A DNA stretch of 42,422 nt. Source: a virus (Duplodnaviria; Heunggongvirae; Uroviricota; Caudoviricetes). This document shows, one piece after another, positions 1 to 34,679 of the stretch (positions within the stretch are counted from its first letter, which is position 1; each line of letters starts with the position of its first letter). The stretch lies in the IMG/VR virus record IMGVR_UViG_2534682157_000018; one strand, given 5' to 3'. A model generated the notes under the pieces. That model did not search any database, was not told where the DNA came from, and saw only the letters and a program-made list of their open reading frames with translations. The translations under genes and the position numbers were made by a program.

Positions 1-2256
<2,256 letters not shown>

Positions 2257-2271
2257 TCATGCTCCATAAAC

Positions 2272-2295
2272 GATAAAACCGCCCGGAGGCGGTTT
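2272..2295 (-). terminator. terminator-like hairpin between I and J
   Basis: Inverted repeat CCGCC-N4-GGCGG flanked by A4/T3; on minus strand the stem is followed by a short U-rich stretch. Weak. Confidence 0.35.
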
Positions 2296-2313
2296 CACAT
2301 AAAACGTTTTTCA

Positions 2314-2961
2314 TCAGCGACCAATCACCACAACCTGACCACCATCCCCTTCGTCTGCCGTGCTGATCTCCTGAGAGACCACCCGCGACCCCACGCGCAT
2401 TTCACCGTACAGAACGGGCAGAACATTGCCCTGGGCAACCATGTTATCCAGTGACGAGAAATACGTGTTCTGTTTGCCGTTATCTGTACTGGCTGCCGTG
2501 GGCGTCCTGGCTTTCGGTGCCAACATCTGCGCCACACCGCCCAGGATCATACTGGCCCCTGCCGCATACATACCCGATACAGCCGTGGCCCCCAGCCAGC
2601 CCACAGGGTTCCACCATGCAACCGCAATCAGCGCCGCCCCCAGCACTGCCTGAAAAATACCGCCACTTTTAGCACCCGCCGGACGCGGTACGATGTGGAT
2701 CACGGCACCATTTTCCAGCGGCTCATTAAGACGGGCAGACAATTCAGTTTCACCTGCATCACGCCCGGCAATGCGTACCTGGTACCAGCCGTCGCTCAGT
2801 TTCTGACGAAATGCCGGGATCTGCATGGCCAGCGCCCGGATGGCTTCGGACCCCGTTTTCACTCGAAGGTCGATGCGGCGGCCAAATCGTTGTAAATCCC
2901 CGTAAAGGCAGATGCGTGCCATGCCCGGTGACGCCAGAGGGAGTGTGTGCGTCGCTGCCAT
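2314..2961 (-). CDS. I: tail assembly protein I
   Basis: ORF-track protein MAATHTLPLASPGMARICLYGDLQRFGRRIDLRVKTG... ending ...ADEGDGGQVVVIGR matches lambda I from memory; position between K and J. Confidence 0.85.
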   Translation of the reverse strand: MAATHTLPLASPGMARICLYGDLQRFGRRIDLRVKTGSEAIRALAMQIPAFRQKLSDGWYQVRIAGRDAGETELSARLNEPLENGAVIHIVPRPAGAKSGGIFQAVLGAALIAVAWWNPVGWLGATAVSGMYAAGASMILGGVAQMLAPKARTPTAASTDNGKQNTYFSSLDNMVAQGNVLPVLYGEMRVGSRVVSQEISTADEGDGGQVVVIGR

Positions 2962-3602
2962 TTGTCGGTGTACCTCTCTCGTTTGCTCAGTTGTTCAGGA
3001 ATATGGTGCAGCAGCTCGCTGTCACCACAGTAAATGGCGGCATGATTCGGCACCGATGAACCAAAACAGCACAGCAGCACATCGCCCGGCTGCGCCGCTG
3101 ACAACGGCACCTGATACAGCCCTGTGGCCTCCAGATTATCCAGATAGAGATTCTGACCGTTACGCCACCAGTTATCCCCGCGATGAAAATCCGGCATCTC
3201 AATTCCCGCCAGATGGTAAGCGTCCCGGAACAGCGTGTAACAGTCCGTCACCCCGTGCTCAAAGCGCCGCCCGGTGAGATGCGGCACACAGCGGAATTTA
3301 TGAATCGCCCCCCGGCAGACCAGCCACCACGGCAAATCACTCTGTACCTGCAGCCGCCGGTCGGCCTCACTCAGCCAGGGCAGACCACCGGGGTGGCTGT
3401 GGACCAGCGCCACAATCTCTCCCTGCATTTCTGCACTCAGCCAGTCCTCCGGCGACATCCGGAAATACGCCTCCGGCTCACCGGAGATATTCACGCAGGG
3501 AAAATATCTTTCCTCCTCCGGCGTTCTCACCACGAAGCCGCACGACTCCGCTGGCGCACATCGCCGGGCGTGCGCCAGAATCGCTGATTCTGTCTCTGTC
3601 AT
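2859..3602 (-). CDS. K: tail assembly protein K (NlpC/P60-JAB type)
   Basis: 247-aa ORF with HSHP motif and a Cys/His region; sits between L and I as in lambda; overlaps I start. Confidence 0.8.
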   Translation of the reverse strand: MTETESAILAHARRCAPAESCGFVVRTPEEERYFPCVNISGEPEAYFRMSPEDWLSAEMQGEIVALVHSHPGGLPWLSEADRRLQVQSDLPWWLVCRGAIHKFRCVPHLTGRRFEHGVTDCYTLFRDAYHLAGIEMPDFHRGDNWWRNGQNLYLDNLEATGLYQVPLSAAQPGDVLLCCFGSSVPNHAAIYCGDSELLHHIPEQLSKRERYTDKWQRRTHSLWRHRAWHASAFTGIYNDLAAASTFE

Positions 3603-4644: not shown

Positions 4645-7600
4645 TTAACATTCCCCCATCACGTCGCATATTTAACAGATTGCCCTGCACCCGCTGATCA
4701 ACCATCCCCATAAGTGCTTTTATTGCCTGAGGGCCAATCTCTCCATTCTGGCCGTCATTTTGAATAGTGATTTGGTATACAGGGGCATAGGTAATATCTC
4801 CGCCTCCATTACCACTTTTACTATTAATAGCTCTGACACCAAGAGAACCATCGGAAGTTCGTGTTAATGGCATAATGGCTTCCGGTCCAGCCTCACCAAA
4901 AACACCAGCCCCTCTTGCAAAAGCAAAAAATTGCGGGGAATCATAAATACCGTTCGAATACGTGTTCAATGACGGAGACTCATAAACACCGCCCTTTGCA
5001 TTCGGAATAAATTTACTAATAGCACTCCCGATAGTTCCTAAAATCCCCCCAGAAGAACTGTTACTAATGCTGTCGAAAATCCCAGTAATTGAAGCCTTTA
5101 ATGCTATTCGACTAAGATCCGAAATCACGGAAGTAGCGAAAGAACGAAAATTTGCCTTGCCTGTCGTGACAAAATCACCCAGCGCATCGGTCATTCCATC
5201 AAACATCTGAGTCGTGGTTGATTTTATCTGCTCACTGATATCCTTAGTGTCATCCAGCCAGTTATTGAATCCCTGGGAGGCACCACTAACCCAGTCTCCT
5301 GCCTGAATATCGAGCTGCTCGTTTTTCTGTCTGACAATTTCTTTTTCTCGTTCCAGAGCATCATTCAGAGCCTGCATTTTCTCCTGAAAAACATGATTTG
5401 ACATCCCACGGGATTTATCTGCATAGTCACGTTCAAGTTGCAGACGCTGATTGTTATATTCACGTTCAATCCGCAGTAATTCCTGCTGGCGTTGCTGATT
5501 TTTATCGCCAACCCCATAACCAGCAATCTGAATATCATACCCCTGTTGACGATTATCAATCGAAGCCTGCAATGAATCACGCCATGCAGCTATTTCGGCG
5601 GATTCCTTGATTAGCCTGTTATTTTTTTCAATCGCAACATTTTTCTCCATCAACGCGGTTATTTCTTCCCGGTGTAAGAGAAGCGATTTCTGATCCTGGG
5701 TTAATTTCGATGACGGTCGTGACTCCAGGTCGGCAATCTGCTGACGCCACTTAACCAGTTCCTGTTCAGAGGAACTTAATTTAACGGTTAATTCAGTTTG
5801 TGAACTTAGTAACGCATTCTGTTGATTCAGATGATCAATCATTCGTTGGGCAGCATCATCCGAATAACCTTTCGCCTTTGGTTGCTTTGGATCTTTATAA
5901 CGCTCATTTATTTGAGCGATAAAATTATTATATTCTTCCTTTGAATACTGACTCTTTAGCTTTTCCAGTTTTGCAAGTTCACTAGCTCTCTGCTGCTCCC
6001 GGGTCTGATATTGTTTTGAAAAGGCATCTGCTCTCTGTCTGAGTTCAATTCCTTCCTGTTGTCGCTTGTTGTAATCGTTTATTGATGAATTTAGGACGTC
6101 CTGAGCAATTTTTTCTGCTTGAAGTACGCCCAATTGCTGCTTTAATCGTGCCAGCCTTTTATTTTGAGCTCCGCCATCTCCAATGCCACCTAACCCGAAA
6201 ACTCCGGGTCGGGTATTTTTTCTATTTCATCAATTTGACGGAGAACATCTGAGATTTTTTGATCAAGGGAGGCCTCACGGCCAATGTCCAGCATGGAATC
6301 CCATGCCCATTTTGCGGAGTCTGCGACAGCTTTCCATGCAGTCTCAAGATAACCAAGATTTTCTTTAATCTGGTTGGTGCGCTGGATCATTGAGGATGAG
6401 TATGCTTCTGTCGCAATGCGGGCGGCCTCCTGCTGGTTCCCTTCATCCTGTAGCGCCTTAATCTGGTTATAAGTCGCAATTGTCAGAAAATGGTACTGAT
6501 CATTAAGTTTTGATATGGCACTGACAGGATCCTTTGCAATTTCATTGAAGTCATTAACCAGTTGTTCGGTTGATATTCCTGTTACTTCGCTCGTTTTTAC
6601 TATCGCTGTCGTCACTTGCTCCAGCGAACTGCTCGCTACCTTTCCCGAACGCACAAGCTGGTTTAATACTGCCGCCGCAGCGCCAGTTGTCGAATCAGCC
6701 GCATTCCCGGCACGTTGAGCTATATCGGCCAATTGCCCGCTGGTTGTCCCCAACTGATTTCCGGTAAGAATAAGAGATTTATTAAATTCGTCCTGCTCCT
6801 GAGAGCCTTTATAGTAAGCCAGTCCTAAGACCCCAACGGCTGCTGCGGCCAGGGTAAAAGGATTAATTAATCCCAGCACATAAGAACCTACACCTTTGAT
6901 CGCCGGGCCAATCCCACCGAACATATCTTTTAGCTGGCCGCCCTGCTGCATTAACACCATAAATGGCGACTGACCAGTGGACAACCCAACAACAATATCC
7001 GTCATTTGTGCAGGCAACATGCGCATAGCAAAAGCCGTTTGTTTTGCCGACATTCCGGTTTTGCTTAATTGTGATTGAGTAACCTCAAGCTCACTCCGCA
7101 TAGCACGAAGTTTTCCAGAAAGCTCCTCATACATTTCAGGAGAAAGCATCCCCTTAGCTTTTGCTTCATTGAGCTGTTTCTGTTGTTCTACCAGACGATT
7201 AAAAGCAGTTCCGACAGGATCAAGTTGAGCAATCAGACGTTGCAAAGCAACAACCTGTTCATCATGCGCTTTTGCTGCTTCTCGCTCTGCCTGAGCCTCT
7301 CCGGTAAGCTCTCGCCGTGTTTCCTGTATTTTTCGGCTATAATTCTCAAACTGAGAACCATTTATTTTCCCGGATGCAAACGCAGCATTAAGTTCATCAT
7401 GCTGTTGTTCAAGATTTCTTAGCGCCGCAGCCAGAGGGTCGATCTTGTCCAGCATTCTTTGAAAGGCCTGAGCCTGCGCTTCCTGCTGGGCGGCAGCAAG
7501 TTTTCCGGCCTTCTCGGCTTCTCTCTGCGCTTGCGCAACCCCGCTCAATTCCTCTGTGGTTTCATTAAGTTTACGGACAAGAAATTCATATTCTTCTTTA

Positions 7601-28398: not shown

Positions 28399-30655
28399 TT
28401 ATTGAATTTGCAGGTTTGTACGTAAGGAACCTGTAGATTCCTCATATAACTTAGATATATAATTAGACATATCATGGTTACTTCGTACTTTTTTATTGAA
28501 TTTTTTCAGGTACTTATCAACCGTAGTGCTAAGTAGCCCTGAGTCGTCTGTAACGTGAGTTATCCCTAAATTAATCAAAACACCTAATTTATTTTTTTCC
28601 ACTAAGCTATCAAATGCGGATTTATCCCCGAGCTCATTCAGTGTTGATGCTATGAAGAAACGTGCATAATCAATATGTTCACCAATTTCCTCATATTGTT
28701 CAATTTGAACTGACAAGTCTTCCAAGGCAGATTTGAAAAAATCATATGCGTAATTGTTACTTAAACACTTTGTGAAAATACAAAGAAGAGCTACTGGTGA
28801 AAACTCCTTCAGCGGGATGTCGGTATTTCCCTTGAGAATATCAACATATAATTTACCTGCATCTATATATGATAAAAAGACTCCCCTCGTTATTTTTTTA
28901 TACGGAGTTAGATATGAAGCCAAATAAAAAGAACCGTTATAAAATAACCTTAAAAATCTTGTTTTATCGTTACTAGGTTTAAGTTCATTAATTTTATCAA
29001 TAAGATATTCATTGTCTCTTAACAAACCAAAATAGAAGAAATAACTATTTGCCCAATAAATATCATAAATATTATCATTTATGTCTATTAGGCCACGCTT
29101 CCTAAGTCCTTCAGCGTAAAAATACTCCATGAATGATCTGTGTAGAAATGAGAACGTATTACTTCTAACATTAACTGTTGTTACTTCACTGCGATAAATT
29201 AGTCTTTTGAAAAGTTTGTCCTCATCAACATTCAAGTTTCTTTTGGCCAAATAATTTAAAAACATGTCCTGCACTTCTGAAATTGATATGCAGTTTAGAG
29301 AGTTATCCATCATAAATATCGCAATTTCTACTAATATATTACTTATTACATCATATTCTGTTTGCGATAATAATCCCTTAGATGTATCCCATCGTCCCAA
29401 TACTATCTCACTGTATTTTGAGTATAGTTCTGTCATTGTAGATGGTAATTCTTTAATCTCATCAGAGAGTATTCTTGCCAGAAGAATAGCGCTCACTGGA
29501 GTCCTGGGAATGAACTTAAATAGTGGTGTTTTTCTATACCATTTTTAAGTTTATTTGTTATTTTAATGTCATTGCAGATTTTATCTACAAAGTCGATTAT
29601 TTGACCTGTGCTAAGTGGTATTATCGAGTATCTTGCAAACATCTGATCGATAACTTCATAGTCCTGAAGAGAATCCATAATTCTTGAAGCAACTAGTAAT
29701 CGAATTTTATCATTCCTGGATACTTTCTCTACAATGTCCCTGAAATTGTTTTGCCTTTCCTCAAGTGATTCCTTTACTTCATCCACCGAATCAACAATTA
29801 ATAAAATATTCCCATCATGTTGTATTTTGTACTTACTTAACACACTTTGTATTATATTTTCAACATTAAGTTTTTTTCTAGAACATCCTTGTATTGACAA
29901 AATACTGGAAGGATGTAGTCTTTTTCGTAAGAATATTCTTCTTTTATTTTTCTAATTAACTGTTTCAGCAAAGTACTTTTCCCAGAGCCAACGGTTCCCT
30001 CTAAAAAAATAAATCTCTCGGCTCTCACAACACTATACAGTTTTAACGGCCTGTGTCTGCGTTTTTTATGATCTTCCTTGCTTACATATCTATCAATAAG
30101 GTTATTTATGCCAACACTACCAAAAAAAGAGCTTTCAGGTGTATCACTTATAGTTTGCAATGTATCTGTTAAGTATTGTTCATAATTAATGGATTCGAAA
30201 TCCCAAAACTCTGGGTAATATTTACTGATTAAAGAACATATTTTTTCACCCTCTATAAATTTTATATTTGTAGATTTGAATTTCAAGTAAATTTTTTCTT
30301 GAGCATTATTTGAGATCGATGAATTAGTAATAACCCAAATTTCATTCAAATGTATGTTCTTAGAGCCAGAAGAAATAAAGCGTGGATATAATTGACACTC
30401 TTCTATTTGTCGTTCAACCTCACTATTTGACTGAATTATCTTTCCAACTTTACAAATAACACCAATATATATTTCCTCGTCTAATGCCTCATCTCGTTTA
30501 ATTATGACAAAATCAGCACCTTTTTCTGATGGTCCTTGCTTATATTCAACATGTGTAACAGTCGGCAAACGTGGTAGAAGCGCTCTTAGCACTGGATGGA
30601 AATCATCAACCTCACGTTGCAATGATTCTATTTTTCTTAAGTATTCTGGTTTCAT
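28399..30655 (-). pseudogene. NACHT-type STAND NTPase with N-terminal Mrr-like (PD-(D/E)xK) domain, read in three frames (29852..30655, 29493..29900, 28399..29496)
   Basis: Walker A GTVGSGKST at the end of the first ORF; Walker B LLIVDSVDE and LLVASR motif in the second; N-terminal GADFVII...EIYIGVICK resembles an Mrr catalytic core; junctions at T7 (29871-29877) and T5 (29529-29533); visibly AT-rich. Confidence 0.65.
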
Positions 30656-31101: not shown

Positions 31102-31914
31102 TCACTTTTCCGATACAATACGGCGGGAAGAATCCGTAATCTGTCGAACAATATCCCGGTGCTTGTTCAGCTCCCGCAGCGCGGCGCAGACTCGCTCCCA
31201 CTTCTGGACATGACTTTTCGCCCGACGCAATTCGCGGTTTGCCATATGCAGCGATGGTAAAACCAGGTCATCCGCTCGCGTTTCAGTAAACGATGGCAAC
31301 GACTGCACAATATCAGCCACAGTTTCTGTTTTAATATCTTCCTGTGTTGCAGCTTCCTGTACTGGTAACGCAACACCTGCTGGCTGAGGAAAGGCTTTAC
31401 CATCGGTTTCCGCTACCGATTCAACTTTCGGCTCTGCTGGTAAATTATCACCCGGTATGCAGTAACGAAATTTACCGTTCTGATTAATGCGAATCAGACG
31501 ACCTTTGCTGATAGCCATTGCCAGCGTTGAAGCCACTTTGCGTGATGTGGTACCGAACAATGTAGCCAACTCATCAGCCGTTTGTGGTCCGCGTTGTTCA
31601 ATCGTCGCGGTTAAATCGCACTCTGAGATTTTCGCTACTGTTGCTGTGGTGGTTTCTTCCGGCAGTTCTGCCTGCGCTGGCTGTTCCTGCTGAACGTTGT
31701 TATCAGCCACACGCCAGGTGTACGCGCTTTTATCAACAAAACCAGCCTTTTTCAGTTCCCATAGTTCGTTCAGCACTTCTTCACGACTGATATCAAGTCG
31801 CGCAGCAAGTTCTATGGATGTGGCTTTTCCCATTGCTTTCAGTGCGTCAAAAACAGTCTCCATTAAATTTTTCTCCCGGTAAAAATTACTTCGCAATTCC
31901 TGGCTGGACGACAT
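31102..31914 (-). CDS. hypothetical protein with N-terminal winged-HTH-like segment (possible YdaW-like)
   Basis: 270-aa ORF; likely start at internal Met ([30 protein letters not shown]..., about 31863); follows the DnaC-like gene. Confidence 0.4.
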
Positions 31915-32632
31915 TCGGACGCCAGCTCTCCCAGTTAAAATTCACCCATCGCCCGCCGTTCATGGTCATGCGATCCATAATCCGCTCGCCGAGCAATGTT
32001 TTCATGGCCTCATAGTTCAGGTTTGTCAGCATCCCCACGCTGCGCATCGACGCTGTCCGGCGATCAACAATCTGGTGCAGTACCACCTGCTCGTTTTTCG
32101 TCTCGCGCTGAATGCCAATTTCATCAAGAACCAGCAGATCCACTTCGCACAGTTCCCGCAAAAATTTTTCGCCTGACTGCCCATCGTCATAGCTGGCGTG
32201 CAGGGCACTCATAACATCAGCCACGGTAACCACAATCACTGTCTGACCGTCTTTCAGCAGGTGATTCCCGATAGCTGCCGCTAAGTGGTTCTTCCCGGTA
32301 CCAGGTTTTCCGCTGAACGCAAAATTTGTACACCCGGTCATCAGTTCATCAGCGATGGATTTCGCCTGACTCAACGCGTATCGCTGCCCTTCGTTCTGCA
32401 CCTGGTAATTCGAAAACGAGCATTTGCGGTGCAATGGCTGGATGCCAGAGCGATTCAGAATTTTTTCCACCCGCAACTGACGATTCTGACGGTTGATCTC
32501 CTCACAACGTTTCTGGCCTTCGGAAAGTTGCCACTCGCGCCACTCCGCTACCGTTTTGAATGGGGCGGTTACATGTGGCGGGGCCAGTCTACGGATACGT
32601 TCAAGAATGCCGCCTGCCGCAATATTTTTCAT
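31886..32632 (-). CDS. ydaV: DnaC-like replication protein (helicase loader)
   Basis: 248-aa ORF with [18 protein letters not shown] and DLLVLDEIG motifs; strong similarity to E. coli DnaC from memory. Confidence 0.8.
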
Positions 32633-32638
32633 GGTCAG

Positions 32639-33444
32639 TTACCCCCTGAAGCCTGGCGGGATCGCACTATCCGGTAACGAGACGGTGTTAACCTGTCGGA
32701 GTAACGTCTCAGGTCGAACACCTTTTGGCGCGAACAAGCCCTGGTATTCATTGGCGATGCTGTGTCGAATCACCTGCTCAGGTGAAAAACCCTGCTGGCG
32801 GAATTTTTCCAGCTCCCGTATCGCCCCGTTAGCACCCTGCTCCGTTCGAATCGGTTTACGCAATGCCTGGCGAAATTCAACCCACTCACGCCAAAGCGAG
32901 ACAGAAATCCAGTTCGGCAAAGCAATATCCAGAGGGTCAAACTTTTTGACACCTCGATTCCCCCGGGGGGGATTTAGGGGGGGATCTTTTTTAGATCTTT
33001 ATCTGTATCTTTATTAGTTGCCTTTGTGTTGACATCATGTTCAAACACCACTTCAACATCTGTTTGAACACCTGTTAAATTTCTCTCTTGTTTTGTTTGA
33101 ACATCTGCTTCCTTTCTGCTTCTTCTGGCCTGAACAGATGCTTTTCCTGCGGCTGATTTTTTGGTTAATTTTTCCCTGACTGATGCCAGATCTTCCTCAA
33201 TCCGAAGATGCACCCATTCCTCGCCGTTATCGCAAAAAAACTCCTGCAAGGATGGTTCAACATCAGCCCATCGCTCGTTAGTCAGACGGGCAATTTTTGC
33301 CAGCCTGTTTTTAGGTATTGGCTTTCCTGTTTGCCAGTAATTGAACATCAGCAACAAATACGCACCATGCTCCTCTGCTGACAAATGCATGGTGTCAGCC
33401 AGGTAATCAGCTATGTACAGTTGCATGTATGGTAATGCGGCCAT
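32639..33444 (-). pseudogene. ydaU: replication initiation protein (YdaU/DUF1376-like N-domain + DnaT-like C-domain), read in two frames
   Basis: N-part 32974..33495 (likely start MAALPYMQLYIADYL at about 33444) and C-part 32639..32920; C-part frame is open upstream across the N-part stop; junction lies in a C5/G7/G7/T6 tract (32960-32992). Confidence 0.5.
33038..33107. repeat. three copies of a 10-bp element TGTTTGAACA / TGTTCAAACA inside the replication gene (iteron-like)
   Basis: TGTTCAAACA at about 33038, TGTTTGAACA at about 33062 and 33098. Confidence 0.3.
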
Positions 33445-33517
33445 AATTGCCCCGTATGATGCTGCCCGGTTGCTTAGAATAAGCACAAACAGCATGGAAA
33501 CTTTTGCTTAATGAACA

Positions 33518-33929
33518 ATGACAGAATCGTCGGAAGACCCGCCGCCGCTGAAATGCGCTTTCCGGTAAACGGCCTGGACTGCATCATCATGCGCATCAAT
33601 TGCCGTACTTAACGCTTCCTGCGCCGCCAGTAATGCACGGCGTTCCAGGGTATCGAAGATGCAGAGTCGGTGACGCAGCTCGCGCGGAAGGATTGCCAGA
33701 ACCGCAGGGATCAGTTTCTGAATTTTTCCCTTTGCGCTTTCGTTTCACCTTTCAACCAACGGTGATAGATATTCTGCTGATTGTTCCAGTCCTTGCCTGG
33801 TACCAGGGGCAATTCGCCGCCCCCCTGGCGCAGATATTCTTCAGTAATGGCATTGGCTACCCATGCCTGCCCTTTTTCAGCAGCCAGGGCTAACAACACT
33901 GATTCGATGTGCTCATGCTTGATTTTCAT
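33518..33929 (-). pseudogene. ydaT: YdaT-like protein, frame-interrupted
   Basis: N-part MKIKHEHIESVLLALAAEKGQAWVANAITEEYLRQGGGELPLVPGKDWNNQQNIYHRWLKGE matches K-12 YdaT from memory; after a T5 run (33723-33727) the -1 frame continues ...QKLIPAVLAI... as in my recalled YdaT; stop at about 33518. Confidence 0.7.
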
Positions 33930-34180
33930 GAATCAACTCCCATCAGCTTTTTCGTAGTAGTTTTATTTTTGCCAATAGTTAAAATTGCATCGGCAGAAAA
34001 TAATCCGTTTGATGCATGAGCGATTTTTTCAGCGTAATTTGTTTCGCCGGTATATTCTGTGCGAGGCAATTTTCCGTTATCCATCCATTTGTAGATTGCT
34101 CTTTGGCTGACACCACAAACGTCGGCCACAACAGAAACGCGAACAGTTTTGATTACATCTTCAAGTGTTTTCTGGTTCAT
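33926..34180 (-). CDS. ydaS: Cro/YdaS-like HTH regulator
   Basis: Start at internal Met (MNQKTLEDVIKTVRVSVVADVCGVSQRAIYKWM...) with GAGGGTGA RBS; HTH motif; divergent from repressor gene; ATGA coupling to ydaT. Confidence 0.6.
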   Translation of the reverse strand: MNQKTLEDVIKTVRVSVVADVCGVSQRAIYKWMDNGKLPRTEYTGETNYAEKIAHASNGLFSADAILTIGKNKTTTKKLMGVDS

Positions 34181-34259
34181 ATCACCCTCACAATGTGAAC
34201 TTTGAGTACATGCTATAACAGAACTGACAGTACATTCAAGAGCGAATATCATTGAACTT

Positions 34260-34679
34260 ATGGTTCATGAAGATAAAGCGCGTAAAGAGTTCGCCAGTAG
34301 GCTTGCGCTAGCCTGTGAAAACGCTGGTTATGAACAACATGGAAGGCAGGCAGAAATTGCCCGTCGAATGAAATTAACACCAAAAGCGGTTAGCAAATGG
34401 TTTAATGGCGAAACAATTCCTCGCCGAGAGAAATTAAGGGAATTAGCAACACTCATTGGAACAACACCAACCTATCTTTTGGGAGAGGATACAGAAGAAA
34501 GTGGACAGGTACGTTTCTATCAGGAGTTAAATCCAAGACAAAAAATCATCATTGACCTTCTGGACGAGCTCCCTGACAGTGAGACAGATGAACTTTTAAA
34601 AACTCTTGAGGAGAAAAAACAGAAGTACAATGCAATTTACGAAGAGTTAGCACGAAAGAAAAAACAAAAAGCCTCTTAA
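34260..34679 (+). CDS. racR: prophage repressor (XRE-family HTH), RacR-like
   Basis: 139-aa ORF with HTH QAEIARRMKLTPKAVSKWFNG; divergent to ydaS-ydaT. Confidence 0.65.
   Translation: MVHEDKARKEFASRLALACENAGYEQHGRQAEIARRMKLTPKAVSKWFNGETIPRREKLRELATLIGTTPTYLLGEDTEESGQVRFYQELNPRQKIIIDLLDELPDSETDELLKTLEEKKQKYNAIYEELARKKKQKAS

Follow-up and report, generated by a model that had tools for sequence, protein, structure and literature searches.

A candidate replication origin within the linker-coding segment of the ydaU initiator gene of a Rac-type prophage

The segment of the replication initiator gene ydaU that encodes the interdomain linker of the protein is likely to double as the replication origin of a Rac-type lambdoid prophage, in a layout resembling that of the lambda origin. 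In gene orientation, the candidate origin comprises a phased repeat array, an AT-rich block of about 43 bp with two GATC sites, and a C7-TAAAT-C7-G5 element that opens the C-terminal module, in that order. The origin oriJ has been known genetically for decades, and the candidate is probably oriJ. In the searchable literature on oriJ, YdaU, and DUF1376, no sequence-level definition or mapping of oriJ was found; that the Rac prophage has an active origin of this name has been reported (PMC3945230). The proposal that the origin lies inside the initiator gene came from the first-pass annotation, and it passed a series of tests at the level of sequence, namely, phasing of the repeats, their independence of the reading frame, the conservation of third codon positions, the AT block, the co-variation of repeats with domain type, and the predicted disorder of the linker.

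The window, meaning the whole 42,422-nt stretch of DNA that was analyzed, covers a complete lambdoid prophage of the Rac type that extends from intR/xisR/recET across an immunity region to the tail genes. Its whole-length identity to a prophage of Escherichia coli CFSAN061771 was 99.39%, and the record AFDV01000042.1 (E. coli STEC_DG131-3, assembly GCA_000225125.2, a 2011 draft) was 100% identical to it. Rac is present in K-12 and in about a quarter of complete E. coli genomes. The ydaU-type initiator gene (32639-33495, minus strand) was identified from the list of open reading frames (ORFs), from the fusion of two frames by a -1 step, and from the PGAP naming of its relatives, whose 858-bp gene is called a “YdaU family protein.” In the window, the gene is read as two ORFs, one of 173 aa at 33495-32974 and a downstream frame that is open at 32992-32639. 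The true start is probably the ATG at 33444, which gives MAALPY..., and the UC4316 homologue of YdaU begins with the same MAALPY. Directly downstream on the minus strand lies ydaV (31886-32632), which encodes a DnaC-type helicase loader with matches to NCBIfam PRK12377 (E=8e-153) and DnaC (E=1e-91) and to Pfam IstB_IS21/Bac_DnaA. The gene order ydaT-ydaU-ydaV, in which ydaT is the cII analogue, was found in both the window and its relatives. The protein was placed in the YdaU family by a DUF1376 match above the Pfam cut-off together with a loader gene directly downstream in a cI/cro/cII-type early operon; against the NCBIfam models, YdaU had no match at E<=0.01. A promoter search of 32600-33600 found none.

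The DUF1376 domain (PF07120; 33184-33432, minus strand), which has a winged-helix fold and is presumed to bind the origin, was the only Pfam match of YdaU, at 92.2 bits against a cut-off of 30.1. An AlphaFold2 model, made for an intact homologue 99% identical to YdaU with 45 aligned sequences, predicted two parts with confidence, namely, a winged-helix N-terminal domain, to which a long helix is appended, and a three-helix bundle at the C terminus. Residues 121 to 166 of 268, encoded by 32947-33084, were predicted to be disordered (pLDDT <50), and the interval that separates the DUF1376 domain from the C-terminal bundle holds the repeats, the AT block, and the C-tract (together 32960-33108). 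The C-terminal module (32639-32959, minus strand), in which the bundle occupies approximately 32752-32901 at a pLDDT of 85 to 90, bears a weak resemblance to the C terminus of DnaT and is presumed to contact the helicase loader. The matches of the C terminus to DnaT structures in the PDB by phmmer were weak (2ru8, E=0.0026; 9zbt, E=0.009), and PF17948, the DnaT C-terminal DNA-binding domain, is a precomputed assignment on many homologues. A Pfam scan of the YdaU C terminus gave nothing at E<=1, a six-sequence profile of the C terminus did not recover DnaT and gave only spurious PPR hits, and an IMG/VR scan with the C-terminal alignment returned close relatives only.

The repeat cluster, which contains the candidate iterons (33012-33108), was delimited by repeat counts, by self-similarity at fixed lags, and by the family consensus. 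Three copies of a repeat upstream of the C/G tract in the same gene had been described earlier, and the window contained exactly three copies of TGTTCAAACA or its reverse complement, at 33038-33047, 33061-33070, and 33094-33103. These copies are packed into 66 bp; 0.16 copies were expected in the entire window, and none of 100 shuffles gave three. Because ydaU lies on the minus strand, the repeats precede the tract when the gene is read 5' to 3'; the copies at 33094-33103 and 33061-33070 have the orientation of the coding strand, and the copy at 33038-33047 is inverted. Weaker phased units were present at 33049-33060 (GATGTTGAAGTG), 33025-33036 (GATGTCAACACA), and 33012-33023 (GGCAACTAATAA), and the pattern (G)TGTT-N-AA returned every 11 to 12 bp from 33075 to 33012. 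Self-similarity at lags of 11, 12, and 23 was in the top 0.3% of all 101-nt windows. The core of the repeat, TGTT-CA-AACA, is a 10-bp near-palindrome within units of 11 to 12 bp. Searches for DnaA boxes, IHF sites, and oriC-type 13-mers yielded only chance-level matches with one or two mismatches.

Directly 3' of the repeats in gene orientation is the AT-rich block (32984-33026, about 43 bp), a candidate DNA-unwinding element by composition and conservation. With 74% AT, it ranked in the top 3% of 43-nt windows, was the AT-richest part of ydaU, and had the lowest GC content of the ydaU-ydaV operon. It contains two GATC sites, at 32983-32986 and 32994-32997, which are 11 bp apart, and its sequence AATAAAGAT.CAGATA.AGAT is kept across genera, from Escherichia to Rahnella.

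Conservation was assessed in 26 loci with DUF1376 relatives from other genera, at 49 to 100% identity. The iteron proposal had been tied to the presence of the repeats in homologues, a test that needs refining: the exact 10-mer TGTTCAAACA was confined to Escherichia/Shigella alleles, and a related phased core, CGTTCAACG, was kept in homologues. The consensus of the relatives was gtAACGa.cGTTCAACGg..GTTga....ccGtT.gAACag.A.g.cAACG..aa..CAACtAATAAAGAT.CAgATA.AGAT, in which AAC(G) recurs every 11 bp. Two Rahnella species each carry three copies of the exact 11-mer ACCGTTCAACG, which is used in two reading frames, encoding D-R-S-T and T-V-Q-R. Across 15 homologues, the folded domain had conservation values of.91/.94/.68 at codon positions 1, 2, and 3, the adjacent basic segment.73/.79/.55, the repeat block.77/.80/.72, and the AT block.78/.81/.88, with the third position the highest in this last block. 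Well-conserved third positions numbered 18/32, versus 28/118 (Fisher p=0.0009); when only the repeat block was counted, the enrichment was marginal (10/22 versus 28/118, p=0.06). The loss of the codon-position pattern suggests selection on the DNA and not on the peptide alone.

The exchange of modules among related initiators followed the same boundaries. UC4316 has the same N-terminal domain, repeats, and AT block (95% DNA identity) together with a different C terminus and a lambda-P-type loader. Conversely, KE55 and ExPEC have an unrelated N terminus joined to the YdaU C terminus and ydaV, and this N terminus comes with its own repeats, GTTACAnAAACG-like and with an inverted copy, at the same linker position. 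Nonhomologous initiators likewise bear their own repeats at this position: in Gifsy-1, mEpX1, phiES15, Klebsiella GZ7, and the Morganella, Hafnia, and Bordetella phages, a repeat family particular to each precedes the 40 nt of the gene that are richest in AT. As judged from these loci, the repeat type co-varies with the type of N-terminal domain and the C-terminal domain with the type of loader, which is the classical lambdoid pattern.

The C/G tract at the end of the AT block had been reported as C5-G7-ATTTA-G7-ATC-T6 at 32960-32992, and this was borne out base for base: on the plus strand, C5 occupies 32960-32964, G7 32965-32971, ATTTA 32972-32976, G7 32977-32983, ATC 32984-32986, and T6 32987-32992. 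Only four runs of at least seven G or C residues occur in the window, and two of them are here. On the coding strand, the tract contains a C7-TAAAT-C7-G5 element (32960-32983, minus strand), which marks the start of the C-terminal module, was delimited by pattern counts and length variants, and is a hotspot of indels. Intact relatives have it in frame, as PPLNPPRG. A search of the window for C5+-W3-6-C5+ gave a single occurrence, against 0.015 expected. The pattern was likewise present once per locus in 9 of 16 diverse initiator loci, immediately 3' of the AT block on the coding strand, and nowhere else in approximately 43 kb; weaker pairs of C-runs in two further loci bring the count to between 9 and 11 of 16. 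A G-run able to pair with the second C-run comes next in six loci. The element is common to phages of Escherichia, Salmonella, Klebsiella, Cronobacter, Pasteurella, and Bordetella, irrespective of which type of DNA-binding domain the initiator has, and it goes with the C-terminal module and not with the repeats. A G-quadruplex on the plus strand, for which G7-ATTTA-G7 would fit G3N1G3N5G3N1G3, was considered and rejected: the G5 runs of relatives cannot form one, and the fold of the single-stranded DNA was unremarkable (z=-0.72).

Two other readings of this part of ydaU bear on the origin proposal. The repeats might be a by-product of a low-complexity, fast-evolving protein linker, with the real Rac origin elsewhere, in or near ydaV or in an intergenic region. 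Only three copies of the repeat are exact, the 10-mer is restricted in range as described above, and the only published primer pair labeled “oriJ” that was found (PMC3945230 supplement) amplifies 32221-32375 in ydaV and not the ydaU linker. However, an origin at that amplicon was rejected: at 46 to 58% GC, with no repeat cluster and no AT block, it has no origin-like features and encodes the Walker-A region, so that it is most simply a nearby copy-number marker. Nor would an unconstrained linker keep third positions as conserved as the first and second or use one 11-mer in two frames, and unrelated initiators would not carry repeats of their own type at the same place. A location elsewhere is therefore improbable. 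The C7-TAAAT-C7-G5 element is harder to assign, and there is a considerable, if somewhat less than even, chance that it is a feature of the protein only, a proline-rich hinge (PPxNPP) that opens the C-terminal domain, with C-runs kept by common descent. In keeping with such a hinge, the element is always on the coding strand and always gives prolines, and it is missing from UC4316, despite the same N-terminal domain and repeats, and from Pseudomonas, Acinetobacter, and one Bordetella homologue. Against it, C-runs are present in genes that are only 30 to 47% identical in that domain, where synonymous sites are expected to be saturated, and the encoded peptides vary (PPLNPP, TPLTPQGG, PPKSPR, and PPIPPL), so the C-runs are read in different registers. 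The pairing G-run in six loci and the preservation of C6-TATA-C6 in a 63%-AT Pasteurella phage gene point the same way, as does proline codon usage: the prolines of the element are encoded by CCC or CCT, with CCG in 0/34 versus 55/143 elsewhere, a test that is partly circular because the tracts had been located by their C-runs.

The earlier description had also linked the G/C homopolymers to the break in the ydaU frame, and this did not hold. Both G7/C7 runs of the window are the same length as those in intact relatives, so a break within them is rejected, and alignment with these relatives placed the missing base in the adjacent A-run of the coding strand (T6 on the plus strand, 32987-32992). 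The window has A6 at this site, versus A7 in the intact gene of CFSAN061771, which is 99.9% identical, and AAAAACA in K-12. The coding strand at the break reads CTA AAA AAG ATC CCC CCC TAA, and with a -1 step at the A-run, the two frames join into an uninterrupted product of 285 aa that is identical to the protein of CFSAN061771. Whether artefact or real, the break is a derived state that does not belong to the G/C runs. Intact ydaU genes are the rule: of the 716 complete E. coli genomes with the full tract, none had A6, the best full-length match having one gap, nor did any of approximately 43 Rac-type IMG/VR tracts. Length variants of the C-runs do occur. The tract of TUM24769 has C6 and that of 2015C-3107 has C6 and C6, and PGAP flags both genes as “frameshifted”; an evolved K-12 strain has a ydaU frameshift at residue 178 of 285 (PMC10044804). 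One Rac-type tract in IMG/VR has a 12-bp duplication that creates a third C7 run.

With moderate confidence, the break is attributed to an under-called homopolymer in the 2011 draft assembly. All 11 indels of the window relative to CFSAN061771 are single-base deletions in the window, all within A/T runs and with few substitutions alongside. They disrupt six genes, namely, ydaU, ydaT, trkG and a NACHT gene (two deletions each), a DUF6651 gene, and the tape-measure gene. A Logan reassembly of SRR058421 (contig L045) showed no substitutions against the window over 3.4 kb and has the immunity type and the ydaT truncation of the window, for which reasons it apparently represents the same strain; nevertheless, it reads A6-C6-C6, in frame by chance, and differs from the window at three homopolymers, including both C-runs. 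Homopolymer lengths are therefore not reproducible here, and this discordance, the one-way deletions in A/T runs, and the lack of A6 in the 716 genomes together make an artefact probable. A real deletion was given a substantial probability, although below one-half. It would be a recent and private slippage from A7 to A6 that left ydaU a pseudogene with a 173-aa N-terminal fragment as its only product, and such a prophage would thus be unable to initiate its own replication. In favor of a real deletion, contig L043 from an independent read set, SRR447067, has the same A6-C7-C7 and the exact 173-aa product, together with a different, K-12-type immunity region and with ydaT and all its other genes intact. 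Other truncations of the window also recur elsewhere, that of the NACHT protein (267 aa) on 38 contigs and that of the tape measure (559 aa) on 3, and ydaU frameshifts in the tract are annotated in other genomes and in the evolved K-12 strain. These exact matches for ydaU, NACHT, and the tape measure in other data sets softened the view that all of the homopolymer deletions are artefacts. The A6 shared with L043 could, however, be the same systematic under-call. A functional break, either a dnaX-like programmed -1 frameshift that yields a 173-aa origin-binding fragment and the full-length initiator or a phase-variable replication switch, is very improbable. A6 and the following G form the heptamer A_AAA_AAG (32986-32992) in the correct frame, a -1 slip restores exactly the wild-type protein, the downstream mRNA is strongly structured (minimum free energy [MFE], -24.5 kcal/mol; z=-4.5), a C5/G5 hairpin begins 4 nt past the heptamer (expected spacing, 5 to 8 nt), and variants of tract length occur in a few percent of genomes. 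All of the complete genomes and IMG/VR tracts surveyed are nevertheless in frame, with A7 or AAAAACA, and none has the two-frame arrangement; no Shine-Dalgarno-like stimulator was read in the sequence upstream of the heptamer, no Rfam match was obtained, and intact genes carry the same downstream structure without needing a shift. As the main reading, frameshifting or phase variation was rejected on the first and third of these grounds. Unlike a contingency locus, the tract has almost invariant C7/C7 runs: 43 of 43 Rac-type IMG/VR tracts were C7-C7 and in frame, and indels were found in approximately 3 of 56 sampled complete genomes. The window shares with dnaX-type sites an identical in-frame slippery heptamer and a downstream hairpin; the heptamer, however, is not conserved in the relatives of ydaU, lacks an upstream stimulator, and, unlike a dnaX-type site, arises simply by the deletion of one A from A7-G. 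Miscalls or mutations in the homopolymers of the tract are frequent enough for several genomes to have ydaU annotated as “frameshifted,” and the apparent ydaU pseudogene of the window is not to be taken at face value.

The candidate origin in the ydaU linker shares its general design with that of lambda, in which iterons and an AT-rich tract lie in the middle of gene O, and the O protein binds DNA through its N-terminal part and P through its C-terminal part (PMC7466680, PMC6022878). Likenesses to the O/P modules of lambda and Stx phages include the following: a location midway along the initiator gene, where a flexible linker is encoded; initiator-binding repeats, candidate sites in ydaU, followed by an AT-rich region of approximately 40 bp; and an origin-specific N-terminal domain and a loader-specific C-terminal domain that recombine at the linker (PMC7466680, PMC6022878). 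By Pfam, the N-terminal domain of YdaU is, in contrast, DUF1376 without Phage_rep_O (PF04492), which was found in the O protein of Gifsy-1. The lambda origin has four to six inverted repeats of 18 to 19 bp, each bound by an O dimer, whereas the ydaU units measure 11 to 12 bp and are phased, with a near-palindromic core of 10 bp; in addition, the loader is of the DnaC type and not lambda P, and a pair of C-runs follows the AT block. K-12 Rac, the prophage of oriJ, is of the same type, with the same ydaU-ydaV replication genes and the same repeats, AT block, and C7-C7-G5 tract as the window. Other lambdoid modules of the DnaC type, such as the “replication protein O” and DnaC homologue of Gifsy-1, mEpX1, phiES15, and Klebsiella GZ7, have a C-terminal domain that is 30 to 47% identical to that of YdaU and starts with FDPL..LP(D/N)W, a DnaC-like loader downstream, and the order of repeats, AT block, and C-run pair; they differ in their N-terminal domains, which are of the lambda-O type (PF04492) or of another, and in their repeats, the sequences of which are unrelated. 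In E. coli dnaT-dnaC, a gene for a protein with a DnaT-like C-terminal three-helix region likewise precedes that of a DnaC-family ATPase, but DnaT lacks the putative origin-binding winged-helix N-terminal domain of YdaU, and the similarity is weak (E of about 3e-3). From these comparisons, the putative arrangement is a variant of the known lambdoid origin-in-initiator design that is set apart by the fold of its initiator, by phased units of 11 bp, and by a C-run element that recurs. The 11-bp phased sites and the C-run DNA element may be undescribed features.

In the proposed mechanism, dimers or oligomers of the winged-helix DUF1376 domain would bind the repeats on one face of the helix, and the bound initiator would stress and open the AT block. 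The C-terminal three-helix domain would then recruit YdaV, the DnaC-like loader, carrying host DnaB. The C/G element would bound the opened region, encode the proline hinge, or do both; for example, as a GC clamp or dyad, it could set where the bubble ends or where the helicase enters. A broader generalization is offered tentatively and is itself rather doubtful, namely, that DUF1376/YdaU initiators may define a class of origins with 11-bp helically phased (C)GTT-N-AAC(G) sites in place of the 19-bp palindromes of the lambda type and that lambdoid origins of the DnaC type may share C5-7/(A/T)3-6/C5-7(/G-run) as a conserved part of the DNA, in which case it would be more than a proline hinge.

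With a concrete candidate, consisting of the repeats at 33012-33108, the AT block at 32984-33026, and the C/G element at 32960-32983, oriJ would become directly testable. The candidate would extend the lambda rule, by which the origin lies within the gene of its own initiator, to an initiator of unrelated fold, and the recurrent C-run element may provide a simple marker for finding origins in many DnaC-type temperate phages.

Besides the single-base deletion in ydaU, the window carries ten more 1-nt deletions relative to the closest complete-genome prophage, that of E. coli CFSAN061771, and all of them lie in A/T homopolymers (positions 6215, 13487, 20889, 21164, 25066, 28123, 29528, 29870, 33722, and 35981). 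Such deletions cut the tape-measure gene to 559 of 1077 aa and ydaT to 72 of 140 aa, truncate a DUF6651 gene, and hit trkG and a NACHT gene twice each. The trkG truncation was confined to the own records of the window's genome, and that of ydaT to these records and the read set SRR058421; the truncated DUF6651 product had no exact match in the collection searched. The N-terminal fragment of the NACHT-domain protein (29852-30655, minus strand; 267 aa, compared with 752 aa when intact) was present on 38 contigs representing numerous independent assemblies, so the A8-to-A7 truncation appears to be a genuine, widespread allele rather than an error.

Within ydaU, the tract region of one contig, IMG/VR UViG_2522572021_000008, contained a 12-bp tandem duplication of CCCCCCCTAAAT, which produces three C7 runs, keeps the frame, and inserts PPLN. 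This duplication shows that slipped-strand events involve not only single bases but also the 12-bp unit. The mRNA of 32930-33000 (minus strand) folded into three hairpins with an MFE of -24.5 kcal/mol, compared with -13.2 +/- 2.5 for shuffled sequences (z = -4.5); one hairpin encloses the A-run, and its flanking arms, AGAUCU and AGAUC, contain GATC. On the template strand, G7-ATTTA-G7 (32965-32983, plus strand) formally fits a G-quadruplex motif, G3N1G3N5G3N1G3, but a quadruplex is unlikely to be the conserved feature, because none can form in those relatives whose runs are G5. In E. coli 12689 (NZ_CP074982.1, locus 2020-3330), ydaU is interrupted by an IS3-family element where the AT block ends and the tract starts; the match to the window stops at query position 516, about window position 33005.

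In YdaU as annotated (285 aa), the initial 17 codons (MLFVLILSNRAASYGAI; 33444-33495, minus strand) are probably untranslated: residue 22 is where the Pfam domain begins, MAALPY is the N-terminus of homologues from other genera, and PGAP likewise has the UC4316 homologue begin with MAALPY. The C-terminus (32639-32959, minus strand) weakly resembles the C-terminal domain of DnaT, and its succession by a DnaC-family loader (31886-32632, minus strand) parallels the chromosomal dnaT-dnaC operon; in GenBank, phage Rac-SA53 has ydaU labelled "primosomal protein I." Primers published as "framing oriJ" in a supplementary table (PMC3945230) delimit, on the window, a 155-bp ydaV amplicon (32221-32375) that surrounds the Walker-A motif and lies roughly 650-900 bp away from the repeat cluster.

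The immunity region, comprising a 139-aa HTH repressor (34260-34679, plus strand) and a divergent cro-like gene (33926-34252, minus strand), is unlike racR/ydaS of K-12, whereas its flanks, ydaT-ydaV and sieB, are near-identical to K-12. This makes the immunity region another mosaic joint within the same prophage family.
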